Below the pieces are notes generated by a model. It had not been told where the DNA came from and ran no database searches. It saw only the letters and a list, made by a program, of their open reading frames with translations. Source: Candidatus Heimdallarchaeota archaeon (GTDB taxonomy: Archaea; Asgardarchaeota; Heimdallarchaeia; Heimdallarchaeales; Heimdallarchaeaceae). Taken from it: DNA of 64,000 nucleotides. Made by a program: the position numbers and the translations under genes. The stretch lies in contig JAHLWR010000005.1 in the NCBI GenBank assembly GCA_019057815.1, positions 96,001-160,000 of the forward strand, in the 5' to 3' direction. Below, piece after piece: positions 9,151 through 18,744 of this stretch (within the stretch, counting starts at the first letter, position 1; each line of letters starts with the position of its first letter).

Positions 9151-9987
9151 ATGAGGTATTTAGTTCGTACATACTATGAAGGTGAAAGGTACTATGGTTA
9201 TCAAAGACAGTCAGATGTTTTAACTGTCGAAGGAACGATAATTAACGCGTTAATAAAGACAAAATACATAAAGGAACCAGACTCTAGCCAGTTTAAAAGT
9301 GCAAGTAGAACCGACAGAAAAGTAAATGCCTTAGGTAATGTTTTTGCATTTAATACTAATAAAGAACTTGTTCTTAGTCAAGTTAACAGCGTGTTACCGA
9401 AGAATAAATCAATTATTTGTTGGGCATACGCTAATGTTAATAATCTTTTTTCTCCTAGATATGTAAAATGGAAAAAATATTGGTATATACTACCTGTTGA
9501 GATTTTAAAGCAAAAAACAAGTCTTTCATTGAGTGAAATTCGTAAAATCAGCACAAAGTTTGTTGGAAGACATGACTTTGAACTTTTTTGTAAATTAGAC
9601 CATAGAAATACACAAAGAAAAATAAATGAGATAAATATACAACAACAAGGAAATGTAGTAATTTTTGAGTTTATCGCACAATCATTTCTTTGGGAACAAG
9701 TAAGAAGAATCATGGCATATTGCATTCAATATCCATTATTAAATAAGAAACTACAGGACACAGAATTTTTGCTTTCATTTAATTCTAAGAAAGAAGACAT
9801 AAATCTAAAACCAGCTAATCCTGCTTGGCTAACGCTTACAGAACTTTACTACGAAAATATTCACTGGATTTATGACAGAAAAGAAATTGAAAAAATAAAT
9901 AGAAAAACGTGTAAAGATCTAAAATCATTAAAACAACAAGTTTCTCAAAAAGAAGTAATTCAAAACTTTTTCCACACTATAAACTGA
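9151..9987 (+). CDS. truA: tRNA pseudouridine(38-40) synthase (start 9151; the ORF-track extension overlaps the tRNA)
   Basis: YYGYQRQ, TVEG, ASRTDRKVNA, GRHDF, SFLWEQVRR motifs. Confidence 0.9.
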   Translation: MRYLVRTYYEGERYYGYQRQSDVLTVEGTIINALIKTKYIKEPDSSQFKSASRTDRKVNALGNVFAFNTNKELVLSQVNSVLPKNKSIICWAYANVNNLFSPRYVKWKKYWYILPVEILKQKTSLSLSEIRKISTKFVGRHDFELFCKLDHRNTQRKINEINIQQQGNVVIFEFIAQSFLWEQVRRIMAYCIQYPLLNKKLQDTEFLLSFNSKKEDINLKPANPAWLTLTELYYENIHWIYDRKEIEKINRKTCKDLKSLKQQVSQKEVIQNFFHTIN

Positions 9988-10031
9988 GTATTTTGATTGA
10001 TAATCTTATAAAAAATGGAGATAGAATATCT

Positions 10032-11006
10032 TTATTCTTTTTTTATGCTTTCGTTGACTAGTTTTGCCAAGAAAGCGGTTAGCTGAATATTACCGGATGC
10101 TCCTTCCGAAATCCGAAAGTCTACCTCTGCAAGATATTCCATAATTTTAAGCTTTTTAGTATCGGAAATTGTTAGATTAGGTAGTTCTCTATAGATTTGA
10201 TAAGCAACATCACTACCAGATAATCCATACTCCAATATCAAATGTTGAAGAGCATCTCTTGCGGCATAGAAATCACCATTTACAGCACAATTTAACATGT
10301 TTCTAGTCTTTTCTGGGTCTGCATGACCAATTGTCCGCAATATAGTAGTCTTTTCAATAGATTTACCGGAAGCAGCAGTGGCTTGTAAAATATTAATCGC
10401 TTTTCGCAAATCACCTTCTGATATATAGAGAATTGTATCAATACCCTCTTTATCATAAGCTATTGTTTCAGAGTTACAGATATAATGAAGAAAATCAGAC
10501 ATGTTTTTATCTTTCAAAGGTTTAAATCTGAAAATAGCGCATCGAGACTGGATTGGCTCAATAATCTTACTGGAATAATTACAGATTAGCGCAAAACGAC
10601 TGGTTCTTACATATCGTTCCATTGTACGACGGAGAGCATGTTGTGCAGCGGTTGTTAAACTATCCGCTTCATCTAAACAGATTATTTTAAAGGGTGCGCC
10701 ACCAAAAGGTGAGGTTCTCGCAAATTCCTTGACTTTTGTACGTATAGTATCAATACCTCGATCATTTGATGCATTCAATTCCAGAAGATTACGAATCACA
10801 TTATTTTTTCCAAACAAATCATTAGCAAGTGCAAGGAGAGCTGTTGTTTTACCAGTCCCAGGAGGACCTGCCAAAAGTAGATGAGGGAGATTATTTCGTT
10901 GTACAAAACCTTTGAATCTTACAATTATATCTTTGTGTCCTTTGAGATTATCCAAAACTTTTGGTCTATATTTTTCAGTCCACATTACATCATAGCTTGC
11001 TGTCAT
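10032..11006 (-). CDS. rfcS: Replication factor C small subunit
   Basis: WTEKYRP, GPPGTGKTT, LNASNDRG, LDEADSL, IQSRC. Confidence 0.97.
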   Translation of the reverse strand: MTASYDVMWTEKYRPKVLDNLKGHKDIIVRFKGFVQRNNLPHLLLAGPPGTGKTTALLALANDLFGKNNVIRNLLELNASNDRGIDTIRTKVKEFARTSPFGGAPFKIICLDEADSLTTAAQHALRRTMERYVRTSRFALICNYSSKIIEPIQSRCAIFRFKPLKDKNMSDFLHYICNSETIAYDKEGIDTILYISEGDLRKAINILQATAASGKSIEKTTILRTIGHADPEKTRNMLNCAVNGDFYAARDALQHLILEYGLSGSDVAYQIYRELPNLTISDTKKLKIMEYLAEVDFRISEGASGNIQLTAFLAKLVNESIKKE

Positions 11007-11144
11007 TTTTTCACGTTCTCAAGTATAGTTTTGTCTATTTAAATATATTAGGTAAAAAATAAATCTAATTACAACAAATTCATCCAAAAAAAGTGGTGTT
11101 GAAATACTTTTAATAGAACATATACTAGAGTAAGCGGATTTACA

Positions 11145-12563
11145 ATGAACAATCAAGATATTATTGAGAACAACAATAATTTGAACTTCCAAACGTTAAA
11201 TGAATACAAAATTAGAGGACACTTTGTCTCCATATATCGAACAAATGAAGGTCTATCTTATTCAGCGAAGCCTATCTATAATTTTGAAGAAAAACCGCTA
11301 TTGTTCGCAGAATTATCAGCAATTATTTTTAAGAACAAAGCAAGATTAGGGAACGAAATATTAAAATTTGAAGAACTTGTAGATACGCTGAAGTCCATAT
11401 GTATGTGGAAAATATTGGATATAAATGAAATCTCAATTAATCCTGAAATAGTCGCTGAAATTTTTATTTATAAGTTAATAAAACTGAATAAGTTAATTCC
11501 TTTATTTTTGGATGATAATGTTAATGAAATTTATATGGATGAACGTGGTTCACCAATTTATATTGATCATCAACTTTTCGGAAGATGCAACACAAACATT
11601 ATTTTGACTGAAGAAGAATTAAATGCCTTGGTAACAAGAATTAAACTAGAGCATCCTATTTCAATAACAACAAAGAATCCTTCTTTAAAAGTTGAATTTC
11701 AAACAAGTTTATTTCACACGAGAATTTCTATGGATTTTCCACCCTTATCTCCTAATGGCCCATCATTTAACATCAGAAAACTAAAAGCAAGACCCTTAGA
11801 GTTAAGTGATTTAATTCTTCTGGACACCTTGCCGTCGTACCTTGCATCATATCTGGTTGAAGTGGTAAAAGCAAGAATGAATATTACAGTTATAGGGGAG
11901 CCAAACTCGGGAAAAACCACATTAGCGAACGCTATTGATCTTTATACACCAAAATATTGGAGAAAAATAGCTATAGAAGATGCAATTGAATCAATAAAAC
12001 AATCTTCGTTGGGATATAAGCAGCTTTCCATACAAGTTGACTCTTTTGAATCAAATAAATCAGATTATACAAAAACATCTGAAATCCTTAAACTTCTCCA
12101 TAGATCACCAGATTGGATATATTTAGGTGAAATACAATCACGTGAGCACACTCAAGCAATGTTCGAGGCGTTAAATGCAGGATTAAAGGGAATACAGACC
12201 GCCCACTCTGATTCTATTCAAAAACTCTTCCGCAGATGGAAAAATTCACACAATATCTCTGAAACAGATTTTCTCTCATTAGAGGTCATAATTGTTATGA
12301 AGCGCGATATAAAACTTGATGGTATAATTAGAAAGGTTTCTGAGGTTTATGAAATTGGGGAAAATGAAGAACATCTTTTTACAAAAATTTATGATTTACA
12401 GTGGGGTAAAAAACAATTTTTTGAAAAAATCAGTAATCAATCTAAGTTAAAACAAAAGATGGATATAATAATTCAGGGAACAGCCGTTTTTGTTTCTCAA
12501 ACTCATGTGCGTGCTGCTAAAAATGATGTAAACATAGGTGAAGAAGCTGAAATCGTTAACTAA
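11145..12563 (+). CDS. VirB11/CpaF/FlaI-family type IV pilus/secretion ATPase
   Basis: FNIRK, Walker A GEPNSGKTT, AIED Asp box, PDWIYLGEI, TAH His box. Confidence 0.88.
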   Translation: MNNQDIIENNNNLNFQTLNEYKIRGHFVSIYRTNEGLSYSAKPIYNFEEKPLLFAELSAIIFKNKARLGNEILKFEELVDTLKSICMWKILDINEISINPEIVAEIFIYKLIKLNKLIPLFLDDNVNEIYMDERGSPIYIDHQLFGRCNTNIILTEEELNALVTRIKLEHPISITTKNPSLKVEFQTSLFHTRISMDFPPLSPNGPSFNIRKLKARPLELSDLILLDTLPSYLASYLVEVVKARMNITVIGEPNSGKTTLANAIDLYTPKYWRKIAIEDAIESIKQSSLGYKQLSIQVDSFESNKSDYTKTSEILKLLHRSPDWIYLGEIQSREHTQAMFEALNAGLKGIQTAHSDSIQKLFRRWKNSHNISETDFLSLEVIIVMKRDIKLDGIIRKVSEVYEIGENEEHLFTKIYDLQWGKKQFFEKISNQSKLKQKMDIIIQGTAVFVSQTHVRAAKNDVNIGEEAEIVN

Positions 12564-14007: not shown

Positions 14008-15039
14008 TTAACTGAAATTTGAAGAAATCTGGTTACTAATCTCAGTTACTATATCATTATAGTCATACCTGAAGATGAATTCAGCGTGATCTCTAATTGT
14101 AAACTCTGCTACATTCGTCGCGTGGGCAACAAGTTTTTGAGTTAGGGCTGAAGAACGACCAATTTTTTTAGCTAAAAGCTTATCCGCAACATAAACCGAA
14201 GCTGCAGAAAGCGGATATGGTCTTCTACCCCCACGATCAGAGTTAGGAATTCTCTCAAAAATACGTAAACAAAGAAGTTGAAGTAATTTTTCATATACAA
14301 AAACATCAATAACGTATTTTTTTTCAATTCTTTCTTTTGTGGTAGAATCATTACTAACTAGGGAACAAACACGGAAAACATATTCTTCGCTTCTTCGAAT
14401 ACCAGCTAGAGGGGATTTTATGTCAAGTTTTTGCATTAAATTCAATAAATTCTTTCCTAAAACCCGATGGCCCAGTTCGCTGTAAGTTCCTACAATCTCC
14501 TTAAGCGTCAAAGGACAATTATGCTTATTCTCTCGAACAGCAAGCAACAAACACAATGCAGATAACAAAACATGATTTGTGATTTTATCCTTGTGCTCTT
14601 TTTTATGTTTCCGATACAAGTAGAGAGTTCTGTCGCGTATATTACTAGGTATATGTAAACGAGAAAAAACCTCGTTCATAATTTTAAGTGTTCTATAATC
14701 TGTTTCTCTTCCCTTTATTGCACCAGGAATGTGATAGAAATTCTTGAATTTTCTGAACTTGCCTTGGCTATGTTCACCTATTAGCGAACCTTGAGCATCC
14801 CTAAATAAGTACTCCTCCACCGCACCAATGGAAGAACCTAATGAGCTTACAACTGCCAATTGATTATTAATCGAAGTGTACTGTTGTTTTTTACGTTGGT
14901 CCTTGGAAACAATTGCGCCTAATTGAAAAGAAGAAGATTTTATAACAGGCTCATGAACAAGACCGCAACTTGGACATGTATATAATCCATTTTGTTCAAT
15001 GATTCTAGAATTACATTCATCGCATTGATAGTCTACCAT
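14008..15039 (-). CDS. tfb: Transcription initiation factor IIB family protein, copy 1 (start likely 15039)
   Basis: CDEC...CPSCGLV zinc ribbon; cyclin repeats ending LTQKLVA...VAEFTIR. Confidence 0.85.
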   Translation of the reverse strand: MVDYQCDECNSRIIEQNGLYTCPSCGLVHEPVIKSSSFQLGAIVSKDQRKKQQYTSINNQLAVVSSLGSSIGAVEEYLFRDAQGSLIGEHSQGKFRKFKNFYHIPGAIKGRETDYRTLKIMNEVFSRLHIPSNIRDRTLYLYRKHKKEHKDKITNHVLLSALCLLLAVRENKHNCPLTLKEIVGTYSELGHRVLGKNLLNLMQKLDIKSPLAGIRRSEEYVFRVCSLVSNDSTTKERIEKKYVIDVFVYEKLLQLLCLRIFERIPNSDRGGRRPYPLSAASVYVADKLLAKKIGRSSALTQKLVAHATNVAEFTIRDHAEFIFRYDYNDIVTEISNQISSNFS

Positions 15040-15320
15040 TTTCCTCAAAAAAACAGCTCTTACAAAACTCTTGAACATTTTTTAGACGAGAATAGAGATT
15101 CAAGTATGTTTAGAGACATTGAAAATTATTCAAAGTGCGTTCTCTGTGACAAAAAAAACAACAAGAGGGGGGTGAGTGAAAGTATTTTATCCAACATAAA
15201 AAGTAAAAAAGATATAATGCAATTGCTGAAACCAAACAAAAAATATTGAAAAATCACGAATAATTTTCTAACAGCTCTCTCAACGTTTATGTTACCTCAC
15301 TTTAAATTCAGCTTTAGTAA

Positions 15321-16883
15321 TCAAATATACGAAGTTAACAACTCTTCTAAGCTTGTGAAATTGTTAACTTTACATTCTTCAATTGTCTTGCAGAATTTGG
15401 GCGCAGCGGTGAAATCCCCACTTCTATGAGCAGCAAAATACATCATACCTTTAATAAACAACCTTTGCTCTAAAACTTCGATCGTATCCAAGTTATCACT
15501 GTAAGGTTTCAAGAGTTTGTTCATCTCATCGAAGCGTCCCATCTCATAATACTGTTGAGCAAGTAAAAGATTAACAAATGATTGTTCTACGAAAGTATCG
15601 TCATTAGGGGCTCTTCTTTTCCACAGGGTAACGATGCAGTTTCTTAAAAGTTCAAATGTTTTTAAATCTACATCTGTTCGTGTTTTTTCCACCATAAATG
15701 AAGTAACGTGCTTTACTCTTTTTAGACTTACATTATCCTTCTTTTGTAACTCTAATAGTTGTTTATAGGACAATTGAGCATTCAAGAGAAATTCGCTCAA
15801 CATGATAGCATCGCTGTAATTTATCTGCGTACCAGAATAAATGTTTTCAATTAAATCGCTAGATTCTTCAAAGTTGAAATCCTTTTTCCTTGTCTGAACA
15901 TAGAATTTTGTCAGATTAAAAGTATGAACAATTTGACGTTTACTAACTCGGTCTAAGTTTTCTTGAATGAACTCATCCTGTAGCAATTTTTCTGTTTCCT
16001 CAACTGATTGGGTAGCTTGATCTAGTTTTCCTTGAAGAGCATAAATTGCTGAAAGATAGGAAAGAGTTGTAAGGTAATAACCAAAATATATGCTACTCTT
16101 ATATGATTCTTTCAGTATTTTTCGCGATTTCTCAAAGTGTGTTTCAGCATTTGTTAAACTGTATTGTAACACATGTCCTAATCCTGCTAAGTAGTAAGTA
16201 AATGCTTGAACATCTTTAGATAGTTGCTCAAAAACGCTTTTATTCCCTAATAACCCTTTAGACGTTTCTAGCACTTTTTCACTGTTTTGTGTTCGTTGAT
16301 AAATTATTAATAATATTCCCAAGGCTTGAACCAAACTTCTATAAAATCCATTTTGGAAGAAGTAGTCTGCACACTCTTCTAGAATATCGGCACTTTTTGT
16401 GTCACGTTCTTCTAACCATTTCTCGACTGCATATGAATAAAGTATAAAATAATGTATATATCTATCACAATCTGTTAATTGGTTTAAAATTTCAAGGGAC
16501 TTATCCATAGCTTTTGCGCTTTTTTTCTCGTTTCCCTTAACTTTTTCAATATACCAAACATACGAATGAGCCCAAGCTATACCCTCTTGATAGTTAATTT
16601 CATTTGAAATAATTAACATTTCCTTAATTAATTGAGGAGCAAGTGGAAGCTTTTCTTTAAAATTGTATATAATAGGTATTTTGTAACCATAGAGATTTAC
16701 TAATGCTTTTTTGTCATCTAACAATCTACAGTTCTCTATGGTTTTATCAATTAGTTTTGAAACACCAAGAGATTTTTCATTAGATGCAAGTAATTGTAAA
16801 TCTCTAACAGCTGACCAAAGATCCTCACTGTTTTCTATCTCCTCTATCTGTTTTTCCATGTCTTCAAGTGACAAATAAACCAC
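15321..16883 (-). CDS. TPR-like alpha-solenoid protein
   Basis: Repeated helical hairpins (YYLAGLGHV...AETHFEKS; LSAIYALQGKLDQA; LLAQQYYEMGRFDE). Confidence 0.75.
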   Translation of the reverse strand: MVYLSLEDMEKQIEEIENSEDLWSAVRDLQLLASNEKSLGVSKLIDKTIENCRLLDDKKALVNLYGYKIPIIYNFKEKLPLAPQLIKEMLIISNEINYQEGIAWAHSYVWYIEKVKGNEKKSAKAMDKSLEILNQLTDCDRYIHYFILYSYAVEKWLEERDTKSADILEECADYFFQNGFYRSLVQALGILLIIYQRTQNSEKVLETSKGLLGNKSVFEQLSKDVQAFTYYLAGLGHVLQYSLTNAETHFEKSRKILKESYKSSIYFGYYLTTLSYLSAIYALQGKLDQATQSVEETEKLLQDEFIQENLDRVSKRQIVHTFNLTKFYVQTRKKDFNFEESSDLIENIYSGTQINYSDAIMLSEFLLNAQLSYKQLLELQKKDNVSLKRVKHVTSFMVEKTRTDVDLKTFELLRNCIVTLWKRRAPNDDTFVEQSFVNLLLAQQYYEMGRFDEMNKLLKPYSDNLDTIEVLEQRLFIKGMMYFAAHRSGDFTAAPKFCKTIEECKVNNFTSLEELLTSYI

Positions 16884-16912
16884 CTAACTCAATTATACTC
16901 AGTGAAATAGTC

Positions 16913-16951
16913 TTTATAAACCGTTGTTCTTAGATTGCAGTTAGATTGCAG
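16913..16951 (-). promoter_or_regulatory. TATA box (TTTATAAA) of the TPR gene with an upstream 2x11-bp tandem repeat
   Basis: TTAGATTGCAG at 16930-16940 and 16941-16951; TTTATAAA at 16913-16920, about 30 nt before the GTG start. Confidence 0.55.
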
Positions 16952-17024
16952 TTTTGATATTAGCACACCTCTAATTTTACATTAATTTTACAAAAAAAAG
17001 AAAAGAAAAATGCTTCCTCAAGGG

Positions 17025-17087
17025 CTAAGGTTGCCAAATTGGAGGCATAATATCTTGATCTCCTGGTTCGCTAGGGTCGTACATCAT
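17025..17087 (-). CDS. 20-aa peptide MMYDPSEPGDQDIMPPIWQP
   Basis: ATG...TAG frame, GC-rich relative to its flanks, preceded by SD-like AGTGAT and followed by a T-tract. Confidence 0.55.
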   Translation of the reverse strand: MMYDPSEPGDQDIMPPIWQP

Positions 17088-17243
17088 ACATCACTTTTAA
17101 TTGTGTTAATCTGATTATGAGCAAAAAAGATTAAAGAACAACAGAAAAAAAGTGACATAAACCCAAAAACGACACTAGAGATATAAACTCTATCTTAATC
17201 ACAACTCTAGAACTATTAAACCGTTTCATATAATCTAAATTTC

Positions 17244-18574
17244 ATGAGGTGTTTCTTTGTACATTATTATGCTGGTTTTTATAGTGAAAAAAAGAATAAG
17301 TGGATGATGAGTAAGAGAGGGAAGATGCAAGCTTTACAGGCTAATGTAATCGAAAAAACTATATCTCTCGTGATTGTACCAGGAATAGAAAAAAAACTGT
17401 TTTTGCGGAAAGTACAAGCGAAGATAGTAGAATTTGCTAACATTCTTCTGACCTATAAGCAAAAAACACAGACTTATAATCTTTTTCACCATCTAGTCTA
17501 TAATAAACACAAGTATCTTGGTATACACAGCCAACTCCAAGAAGCGGTGCAAAGGAAAGTCTTTGCTGCTAGAAAAGCGTGAAAGTTTAAATCTTTACCC
17601 TTGGAATTCAACTTTCCCAGAAGTGGAAAATTAACTTTTTCTACTCGCGGAAAACCCATTTTGTGTCTATCACCATTTAAGAAACGTGTAGCTTTCCCCC
17701 TTAAAATCAACGGAGGATGGTATAGATTGACTGACCATCTTAAAGGTGGATGGGAAGCACATAGTTGCAAAGTCTGGAAGGTTAAAAAACAGTGGTGCGC
17801 TCATCTAATCATTCGCAAGAATCTCCCACCTACTCAAGAGGTGGAAGGAATCATCGGAGTAGATATAGGAGTGAAAATTCTGGCTTCAGTAACACTTAAT
17901 CACTCTTCTTTCCCTCTGATGGAACAATATCTTAGGAAGGATCTGGCTTGGAAACAACACCAGTTCCTTAAAAGGAGAGCAAAACTTCAAAAATTTGCTT
18001 CTCACGGCAGTCTTCAAGCACGGCGTGCGTTGAAAAGGTTAAGAACACAAGAACGAAAGTATGTTTACACCCGTTGTGGGCAAATAGCCCGAGAAATAGT
18101 TAATTCAGCTGTAACTACCCGTTCAGCTATAGTCCTTGAACGTGTCACTCATATCCGGAAAAGGTGGACGCGTCAAGCAAGTAAAGGAAAACAAGGAGCG
18201 CAAAAGAGTAGGAAGAAGATTAACCGCTGGTTTTTTGCCACTTTTCAATATCTCCTTCTACGTGCAGCACAGTTAGAAGGTATTACTGTTATACACGTTA
18301 ACCCCCGTTATACCAGTCAAACTTGCTCTCGTTGTGCGAGAAGAATAAACACTTCTCGCCCCCACAAGGAACCTTTTTGTCTGTGGTAACTGCGGTTTAG
18401 TACTACACGCTGACCGTAACGCTTCGCGTAATTTAGCTGTTAAAGGTTTATTTTTCTTTCCTCTCCCCCTCTTTAGTTCTTGGTTTTCCTTTCTCTCTTC
18501 CCCGAACGAGCGGAGAACGCTTTCTCCAGTTTCTTCGGTTGAGGTGTTATCGACCATCTCATCTGGCTCAATGA
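17244..18574 (+). pseudogene. tnpB: IS200/IS605-type TnpB with an in-frame TGA (17580-17582) and a frameshift in the C-run near 18360
   Basis: IGVDIG, IVLE, PRYTSQTCSRC; the shifted frame gives FVCGNCGLVLHADRNASRNLA. Confidence 0.85.
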
Positions 18575-18744
18575 GCGGCTCACCCCCCGAAGGTTGACTC
18601 GAGAGCAAGATTTTTGTATAACTATACAATAATCAAGTTGATGAAGTAAAATAAGCATAGATGTAGTTTTGAAAGTAACAAAAAAGAAGATAATAATATG
18701 AAAAACGTTTAGTTTTTAATATTTAGTGTATATAAAAAATTGAA

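Follow-up and report, generated by a model that had tools for sequence, protein, structure and literature searches.

Acidic micro-peptides encoded beside tetratricopeptide-repeat proteins in Heimdallarchaeaceae: a putative archaeal counterpart of bacterial peptide-receptor cassettes

The window analysed here is a stretch of 64,000 nucleotides (~31 % GC, archaeal) from a Candidatus Heimdallarchaeota archaeon (GenBank assembly GCA_019057815.1, contig JAHLWR010000005.1, positions 96,001 to 160,000 of the forward strand); coordinates refer to this window unless another locus is named. On its minus strand, a micro-gene for a 20-residue peptide precedes the gene of a tetratricopeptide-repeat (TPR) protein, and the two products probably form a cognate ligand-receptor pair. 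Judged by its conservation, the micro-open reading frame (micro-ORF) at 17087-17025 is a genuine, unannotated translated gene for an acidic Pro/Trp peptide, and by the same measure there are more than 150 matched peptide-TPR pairs within one Heimdall (Asgard) family. A complex model and the sequence variation of both partners indicate that the peptide very probably binds the adjacent TPR protein. The pairs resemble bacterial cassettes for peptide-receptor signalling, of which they seem to be a counterpart in archaea that has not been described before. The window cassette comprises the following elements:

17128..17157, minus strand: promoter-like block of the peptide gene, composed of TGTCAC (17157-17152), a T-run, CTGT and the TATA-like TTTAATCT (17135-17128); its promoter function is presumed
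17090..17095, minus strand: Shine-Dalgarno-like (SD-like) AGTGAT of the peptide gene, 2 nt ahead of the first ATG and 5 nt ahead of the second
17025..17087, minus strand: peptide micro-gene of 20 amino acids, MMYDPSEPGDQDIMPPIWQP, plus TAG stop, from ORF reading, family conservation and pattern census
16992..17010, minus strand: T5/T4/T8 tracts 3' of the peptide stop, archaeal terminator-like, where transcription would end
16931..16952, minus strand: direct repeat, two copies of ACTGCAATCTA, a candidate operator directly upstream of the TATA box of the TPR gene
16912..16920, minus strand: TATA-like TTTATAAAG of the TPR gene, as read from the sequence
15321..16883, minus strand: TPR-like solenoid gene, a 520-codon ORF that begins with GTG 16883

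The micro-ORF, its AGTGAT and the downstream T-tracts had been described in an earlier reading of the bare DNA (the original prediction), as had a co-oriented TPR-like gene of 520 amino acids with a TATA box of its own about 140 bp further downstream; all of these are present, the gap measuring 141-150 nt. The likely start of the TPR gene is TTG 16874 (517 residues) behind AGGTGG at 16885-16880, and public gene calls begin at ATG 16859 (512 residues). For the peptide ORF, an alternative in-frame ATG at 17084 would yield a product of 19 residues. In full, the window peptide reads MYDPSEPGDQDIMPPIWQP, its tryptophan being W18 and its C-terminal 12-mer (residues 9-20) GDQDIMPPIWQP. It carries a net charge of about -4.5, and neither a signal peptide nor a hydrophobic stretch was present in its sequence.

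Since 93 ORFs of at least 20 amino acids occur in 7 kb around the locus, a 20-codon ORF is by itself no evidence of a gene. What sets this micro-ORF apart from chance is its conservation: all 9 six-frame matches to 'PPxWxP-stop' in the 3.7-Mb genome belong to one peptide family, and a census with a degenerate DNA pattern for G-D-x4-P-P-x-W-x-P returned 152 matches as compared to none for the reversed pattern used as control. The 152 matches are distributed over 25 genomes, all from genera g1 and g3 of Heimdallarchaeaceae, while 36 other genomes of the same family, order and class yielded 0 matches. Paralogs of the upstream region as well as of the TPR protein exist elsewhere in the genome and carry homologous micro-ORFs.

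Family units collected from relatives (53 at first, later 123 distinct units) conform to the consensus M(x0-6)[YF]DP(x1-4)GD-x-x-[IL]-x-PP-x-W-x-P(x0-1) and encode acidic peptides of 18-26 residues devoid of a hydrophobic stretch. In the 53 peptide genes, each of the invariant residues D, P, G, D, P, P and P is written by 2-4 synonymous codons, and entropy at codon positions 1/2/3 amounts to 0.68/0.68/1.40. This free choice of synonymous codons at invariant residues shows that selection acts on the peptide itself rather than on DNA or RNA. An Rfam search of 16700-17400 gave no match, and none of five family peptides looked up in a collection of 15 billion proteins was present there. The family is unannotated, and more than 150 conserved genes escape standard gene callers.

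The reading of the conserved block as something other than a gene product, i.e., a cis-regulatory leader or upstream ORF, a small RNA or promoter DNA of the TPR gene, could appeal to its position just upstream of that gene and to the conserved nucleotide motifs in its flanks, but is hardly credible in view of the amino acid-level conservation with free third codon positions, the own SD and terminator-like T-tract, the tandem copies, the separate TATA-like box of the TPR gene, the absence of an Rfam match and a covariation (see below) that concerns encoded residues.

Peptide and TPR genes are tightly linked. Among the 81 main-clade TPR genes (~35 % identity or more to the window protein; set reached after adding 40 regions), 77 are preceded by co-oriented peptide genes at a median gap of 114 nt, with one peptide gene in 52 cases, two in 18 and three in 7. 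Conserved, D/P-rich micro-ORFs upstream of TPR homologs, co-varying with their neighbour, were what the original prediction had called for, and they were found at these 77 loci with amino acid-level conservation and covariation with the groove. Of the four exceptions, one TPR gene has two variants with W changed to Y (PPxY), one is preceded by a 5'-truncated remnant, one lies at a contig end and one, in a third genus, truly lacks a peptide gene. The TPR family occurs in 26 of 30 genomes of Heimdallarchaeaceae and in 0 of 30 searched from other families; a genome may have as many as 10 copies, which often stand in tandem. Its main clade was found in the same two genera as the peptide; elsewhere in the family only distant homologues were found.

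Several loci depart from the common pattern. At L060:11313-12000, the region ahead of the TPR gene 9621-11312 (minus strand), the Trp that is invariant elsewhere is replaced by Tyr in two family peptides (…PPLYFPN, …PPMYFPN), giving a PPxY motif. Decayed peptide genes lie upstream of the TPR genes L067:354-2033 and L068:812-2392; one of them reads …DEDI/PPPCW-stop only via a frameshift, and the other has lost its 5' half (…GDDSFLPPLWTP-stop) and with it a start codon. A divergent TPR clade (~21-28 % identity; L086-L089, L042) is found in every case behind the 3' end of a beta-CASP/MBL-like gene that is conserved, is without a peptide gene and may represent the ancestral, peptide-less form.

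The peptide genes share a common anatomy across the 123 units: an SD-like GTGA/GATGA motif within 16 nt of the start (103 units), TGTCA..T-run..CTT at 70-76 nt before the ATG (98), a TATA-like box (98) and, no more than 45 nt after the stop, a run of at least T5 (106). In the window's genome, the strict TGTCA promoter-like motif is almost confined to peptide genes. With a promoter-like motif, TATA-like box, SD and T-tract of its own, the peptide gene looks like a separate small transcription unit. A direct repeat ACTGCAAT-N3-4-ACTGCAAT stands just ahead of the TATA box in ~30 % of TPR promoters, the window's included; the looser pattern [ACT]TG[CT]AA-N4-7-[ACT]TG[CT]AA matched 26 of 81 TPR promoter regions (~24 true-looking repeats; background 0.01 per 350 nt), and the TATA-like box follows the repeat in related TPR promoters as well. 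Carried by this minority of TPR promoters only, the repeat was rejected as a universal, operator-like feature of the cassettes. Beyond the TPR promoters, the AAAAACTGCAATCTAACTGCAA direct repeat with a TATA box stands in front of three loci on the minus strand (G000:C7:51831-51847, C24:68709-68725 and C40:101289-101305), i.e., a relic lacking a clear gene, a pair of 150 and 472 amino acids and a pair of 272 and 242 amino acids; Pfam and NCBIfam gave no match for the genes behind these three repeats, which may reflect a shared regulon or a copied promoter.

The TPR protein (isoelectric point 5.4) is free of transmembrane segments, and its relatives are labelled Candidatus Heimdallarchaeaceae/Heimdallarchaeota. 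Its AlphaFold2 model (predicted local distance difference test, pLDDT, 92.4) is all-alpha with helical hairpins throughout. Pfam returned only sub-threshold TPR_12 and TPR_MalT matches, and NCBIfam nothing. Comparison of the model with ~48,000 chains by VIA-align ranked APC5 first (Z 22.4), followed by the peptide-bound Rap of phage phi105 (8rte; Z 20.4, 327 of 350 residues aligned, root-mean-square deviation 5.1), APPBP2 with its C-degron (18.5), NprR-NprX (17.7), RapI (17.1), MalT domain III (16.9), AimR (16.1) and PlcR (14.2); LGN and the kinesin light chain were also among the matches, and Foldseek, run in addition, agreed on a TPR-like fold. At the sequence level, a 31-member profile searched against all PDB sequences for homology to receptors of the RRNPP group matched only designed TPR proteins (E about 1e-4). 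Likewise, a profile search of 1.84 billion representative proteins retrieved only 58 proteins at E<=1e-30, which marks the family as narrow, and, at values weaker than ~1e-15, generic multi-TPR proteins; none of these hits linked it to receptor families of bacteria. Across 74 paralogs, conservation is highest in the C-terminal ~90 residues (entropy ~0.75-1.3 vs ~2 elsewhere), and the groove combines invariant residues (Y146, W153) with hypervariable ones. A separate output domain in the C-terminal 118 residues was considered and rejected: folded alone, this segment forms just more TPR repeats and matched only TPR segments, at Z values up to 11.3 that are noise for helical repeats.

Prediction of the complex, which had been proposed along with the original prediction as a check, favours binding of the window pair (ipSAE 0.68 vs 0.02 for the best of 3 controls). 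In calibration, 58 of 80 solved complexes attained the 0.68 mark, as did 2 of 110 mismatched pairs, counts that are only rough since the alignment was self-built and no calibration chain had less than 30 residues. The runs agreed in at least 61 % of contacts, with a partner pLDDT of at least 45. In the model, residues 9-20 of the peptide are placed in the groove, where I17 contacts TPR residues 150/183/186/187, W18 contacts 108/111/147/150/154 and Q19 contacts 67/104/105/108/143/146/147.

A second line of evidence stems from covariation across 74 proximal peptide-TPR pairs and 413 variable TPR columns, which is independent of the complex model since the predictor saw no paired alignment. The residue following the tryptophan (W+1) covaries best with TPR columns 63, 101, 108, 67, 70, 104 and 105, the preceding one (W-1) with 179, 183 and 180, and the residue ahead of the PP with 266, 310 and 265. 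For W+1, 4 of 6 variable predicted contacts rank in the top 15 of the 413 columns (p=1.6e-5). No position was enriched for the contact set of another one, except that the tail shares the pocket columns of W+1. The resulting correspondences, with the W+1 pocket written as TPR residues 63/67/104/105/108, are:

W+1 = F (tail PN): pocket EKS[IV]G, with Gly at 108 and K67
W+1 = S: pocket DRQ[LI]H
W+1 = Q: pocket GPSYY (window pair)
W+1 = R: pocket ESN[IV]Y, with Glu at 63
W+1 = W: pocket S[ST]xHY
Ala before W: H179 / M183
Thr before PP: N266 (21/21)

As read from these alignments, the specificity code makes steric, charge and chemical sense. The same pocket signatures reappear in separate clades of the TPR tree, and leave-one-out prediction of W+1 from four pocket residues was right in 52 of 60 cases. 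In 24 sister pairs, contact columns change in 64 % when W+1 differs as compared to 12 % when it is the same (Fisher p=3e-9).

Peptide and pocket also appear to move together. The window locus carries the following recombinant segment:

16426..17076, minus strand: specificity module, consisting of the peptide 3' half, the intergenic region and the first ~150 TPR codons, with the W+1/C-terminus pocket residues 63-108

This module shares 84-97 % identity with a cassette of the sister genome that is paralogous (G001:C20) and only 42-77 % with the syntenic ortholog, while the flanks and the 3' part of the TPR gene are 84-96 % identical to that syntenic ortholog. By this mosaic pattern, the peptide 3' half and the TPR 5' end have been exchanged together by recombination. 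Owing to this exchange, the orthologous loci differ in specificity, i.e., IWQP with pocket GPSYY in the window and IWSP at the sister locus.

These data are best explained, with good likelihood, by a translated peptide that serves as cognate ligand of the neighbouring cytoplasmic TPR protein. In such a scheme, the acidic product of 19-20 residues, expressed from its own small transcription unit (TGTCAC element, TATA-like box, SD, oligo-T stop), would be bound by the TPR protein encoded ~150 nt downstream under a separate promoter. Residues 9-20 would run along the concave groove in extended form, with partly invariant TPR residues (Y146; W153 in the interface) in contact with the invariant Trp and the C-terminal Pro. 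Residues 265/266/310 would read the residue before PP, 179/180/183 that before W, and 63/67/104/105/108 that after W together with the tail. With variable peptide residues read by variable pocket residues, each cassette would constitute a private channel. By analogy with Rap-Phr, occupancy by the peptide probably alters the action of the TPR protein on a partner, for which the C-terminal ~90 residues provide a candidate surface, so that binding may switch an output.

Several points weigh against this explanation. The 20-residue partner lies outside the calibration range of the complex predictor, and TPR folds are generically alike, with the eukaryotic scaffold APC5 outscoring Rap. Variable columns other than the contacts likewise change at a higher rate in sister pairs with differing peptides (59 % vs 27 %), so that part of the covariation signal is divergence, and shared descent inflates covariation. 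Physical linkage between the peptide gene and the TPR 5' end may contribute to the W+1 signal, but it fails to account for the spread along the groove, where peptide positions separated by only 3-15 nt correspond to different, successively more distal helices that lie 100-250 codons from one another. Of the 33 distal peptides in arrays with more than one peptide, 29 misfit the pocket class of the adjacent receptor and 4 fit it. Finally, the peptide has no known export signal and the TPR protein no recognisable output domain, and the signalling part is therefore an analogy.

The distal peptides would be orphan or cross-talk ligands; spare copies of the proximal peptide they are not, as 0 of 33 share the proximal specificity triple. 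One such array (G000:C10:5554-6030) has three tandem peptide genes before a single TPR gene, and its distal-most peptide (…ITPPLWRP) would need a pocket of the ESN[IV]Y type, which no TPR protein of this 95 %-complete assembly has, making it an orphan ligand.

Whether the ligand leaves the cell bears on the nature of the system. Export of the peptide and its sensing between cells is a possible extension of the ligand-receptor reading, though somewhat short of probable. One lead in this direction is a single-copy ABC (ATP-binding cassette) ATPase (~285 amino acids) plus FtsX-type permease (~605 amino acids), situated directly upstream of a peptide-TPR cassette in at least seven genomes of both genera at gaps of 170-600 nt:

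G000:C23:43589-46319 (L046:9590-12317): ABC-FtsX pair before a cassette; also in L053, L054 and L064

The permease has about 8 transmembrane segments and a ~240-residue loop, and orthologs of it turned up in this family only; the transporter and a TPR gene share a contig in 17 of 23 genomes. This linkage is weakened by PEPCK being conserved nearby too and by distant transporter homologues in genera devoid of cassettes, and ABC-FtsX may be a peptide exporter or merely conserved synteny. About 16 loci for Opp/Dpp-type binding proteins (SBP_bac_5) above cut-off in the genome are permissive only for re-import by an oligopeptide permease as in RRNPP systems. At its boldest, the reading would make the cassettes the first peptide cell-to-cell communication of Archaea, convergent with RRNPP: leaderless acidic peptides would exit via ABC-FtsX with the conserved N-terminal [YF]DPxxGD half as shared export/processing handle, re-enter via Opp-type importers and meet as many as about ten orthogonal cytoplasmic TPR receptors per cell that read them, while recombination of 'peptide plus N-terminal pocket' would reshuffle pherotype-like specificities. 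In its entirety, this scenario is rather unlikely.

Of the rivals, a purely intracellular role of the same binding pair fares best, even though it is improbable. The peptide would then act as a labile inhibitor or co-factor of the TPR protein (antitoxin-like, anti-adaptor-like or as dosage switch), and diversification of the addiction or conflict type, not communication, would account for the large number of private pairs. A strongly charged peptide lacking signal peptide and hydrophobic segment is compatible with this, as are the order of a small gene upstream of a large one known from type II toxin-antitoxin pairs, the multi-copy tandem arrays with module swapping and decayed copies, and the absence of a transporter next to the window cassette. 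However, the promoter-like block and T-tract of the peptide gene mark two genes with separate signals rather than a coupled operon, and the TPR protein contains no toxin-like or enzymatic domain; in both respects the pair deviates from type II toxin-antitoxin systems. Moreover, the misfit of most distal peptides would be odd for an antidote, and the ABC-FtsX genes preceding cassettes in two genera also weigh against this rival.

Much less probable is a peptide that serves as precursor of a ribosomally synthesized and post-translationally modified peptide (RiPP) or of a cofactor, with the TPR protein as recognition or scaffold protein. The family is indeed short, multi-copy and variable with invariant W and P residues, and TPR and other helical recognition elements are known in some RiPP pathways. 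Yet no modifying enzyme is conserved beside the cassettes, whether at 5 loci of this genome or in the arrays of relatives, where the neighbours are unrelated housekeeping genes (TFB, PEPCK, PAPS reductase, Lsm, TGT, EF-2, Orc1/Cdc6) in place of a RiPP cluster; near one-to-one pairing and a private pocket code suit a receptor rather than a shared scaffold. RiPP, leader-ORF and chance readings are all poorly supported.

Two neighbours of the window cassette were considered as module parts and rejected. Two adjoining ORFs on the plus strand at 17244-18629 (112 and 262 amino acids; matches to Cas12f1-like TNB and OrfB_IS605) look like a broken TnpB. This ~1.4-kb block is an insertion not found at the syntenic locus of the sister genome of the same genus; it stands ahead of the peptide promoter block by ~90 nt. 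A TFB-like gene of 356 amino acids (14008-15078, minus strand; sub-threshold TFIIB zinc-ribbon and cyclin-repeat matches only) follows immediately downstream of the TPR gene; it is syntenic in the sister genome but not present at other cassettes.

Among known systems, Rap-Phr of Bacillus, its plasmids and phages (8rte; RapF/RapJ-PhrC, 4gyo) is the nearest parallel: a cytoplasmic all-TPR receptor without DNA-binding domain is encoded beside its own short peptide, the peptide is extended in the concave groove (a prediction in the present case), many paralogous, mutually private pairs coexist per genome, and Rap is the closest solved fold among RRNPP members. In contrast to Rap-Phr, the Asgard system has an archaeal host and no detectable sequence homology; its peptide gene is located upstream with a putative promoter of its own rather than downstream and overlapping as phr; its peptides are acidic, 18-26 residues long and free of a Sec signal or obvious processing site; and its receptor is ~150 residues longer through extra C-terminal TPR repeats.

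Precursors of the streptococcal Rgg-SHP and ComR-XIP systems have ~17-25 residues, are not Sec substrates and are exported by the ABC exporter PptAB, and streptococcal pheromones include Trp-containing C-terminal recognition motifs such as the 'WW' of XIP. An ABC transporter is genetically linked to the Asgard cassettes too, albeit of FtsX/MacB type and only as a lead. Rgg and ComR carry an N-terminal HTH (helix-turn-helix) that the Asgard protein lacks, and SHPs are hydrophobic, unlike the strongly acidic Asgard peptides.

Like eukaryotic TPR readers (kinesin light chain with W-acidic/Y-acidic motifs, 3zfw; APPBP2 with the RxxGP degron, 8jal; the clamps of Hop and PEX5), the groove would read an acidic, Trp-centred or C-terminal peptide, and the basic residue 67 (K or R), which tracks the length of the C-terminal peptide tail, recalls a carboxylate clamp. 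The eukaryotic motifs, however, sit in large clients, whereas the Asgard motif is a free-standing gene product that has a putative promoter of its own and co-diversifies with its reader.

The canonical RRNPP propeptide has an N-terminal secretion signal, of Sec type or with a basic plus hydrophobic region of PptAB type, and is processed to a short mature C-terminal peptide (PMC10075063). The Asgard pairs share with RRNPP systems the TPR-type superhelix receptor (as modelled) and the adjacent small peptide gene (77 of 81 loci), but neither sequence homology to the receptors Rap, Rgg, NprR, PlcR, PrgX and AimR nor a secretion-type N-terminal propeptide signal was found. Given the lack of both and the archaeal host, the pair is not an RRNPP member but an analogue. 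The original prediction had correctly noted a peptide without signal sequence and a TPR protein without HTH, as borne out by the sequence, Pfam, NCBIfam and the fold search, and had expected the pair to differ from RRNPP on these grounds. This difference holds by sequence and propeptide type; the missing HTH does not set the pair apart from all RRNPP systems, since Rap proteins are also without HTH. Its proposal of an archaeal peptide-sensing module is in keeping with the linked micro-ORFs, their conservation, the covariation and the predicted binding, but not, for want of an export signal in the peptide, as far as an extracellular signal is concerned. The present analysis contributes a model of the complex, a covariation code resolved by peptide position, the finding of module exchange and a lead on a transporter.

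To our knowledge, cassettes of peptide pheromone and receptor are known only from Bacillota and their mobile elements. No published description of this peptide-TPR system, or of any archaeal peptide pheromone-receptor case, was found in the literature, and a survey of RRNPP systems makes no mention of archaea (PMC10075063). Heimdallarchaeaceae are close relatives of eukaryotes among the archaea, and in them the pairs would represent a system that parallels the bacterial cassettes in architecture without homology to them. Its residue-level specificity code is directly testable by synthetic peptides and point mutants, and the existing cultivated Heimdallarchaeaceae enrichment (Ca. Y. umbracryptum, bioRxiv 10.1101/2025.11.06.686947) could open the system to tests. 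Should the peptides be signals, one may ask whether Asgard archaea communicate socially or with partners. Should their action be confined to the cell, the cassettes would provide a free-standing module of short linear motif plus TPR reader in the lineage that gave rise to eukaryotic motif-reader networks.

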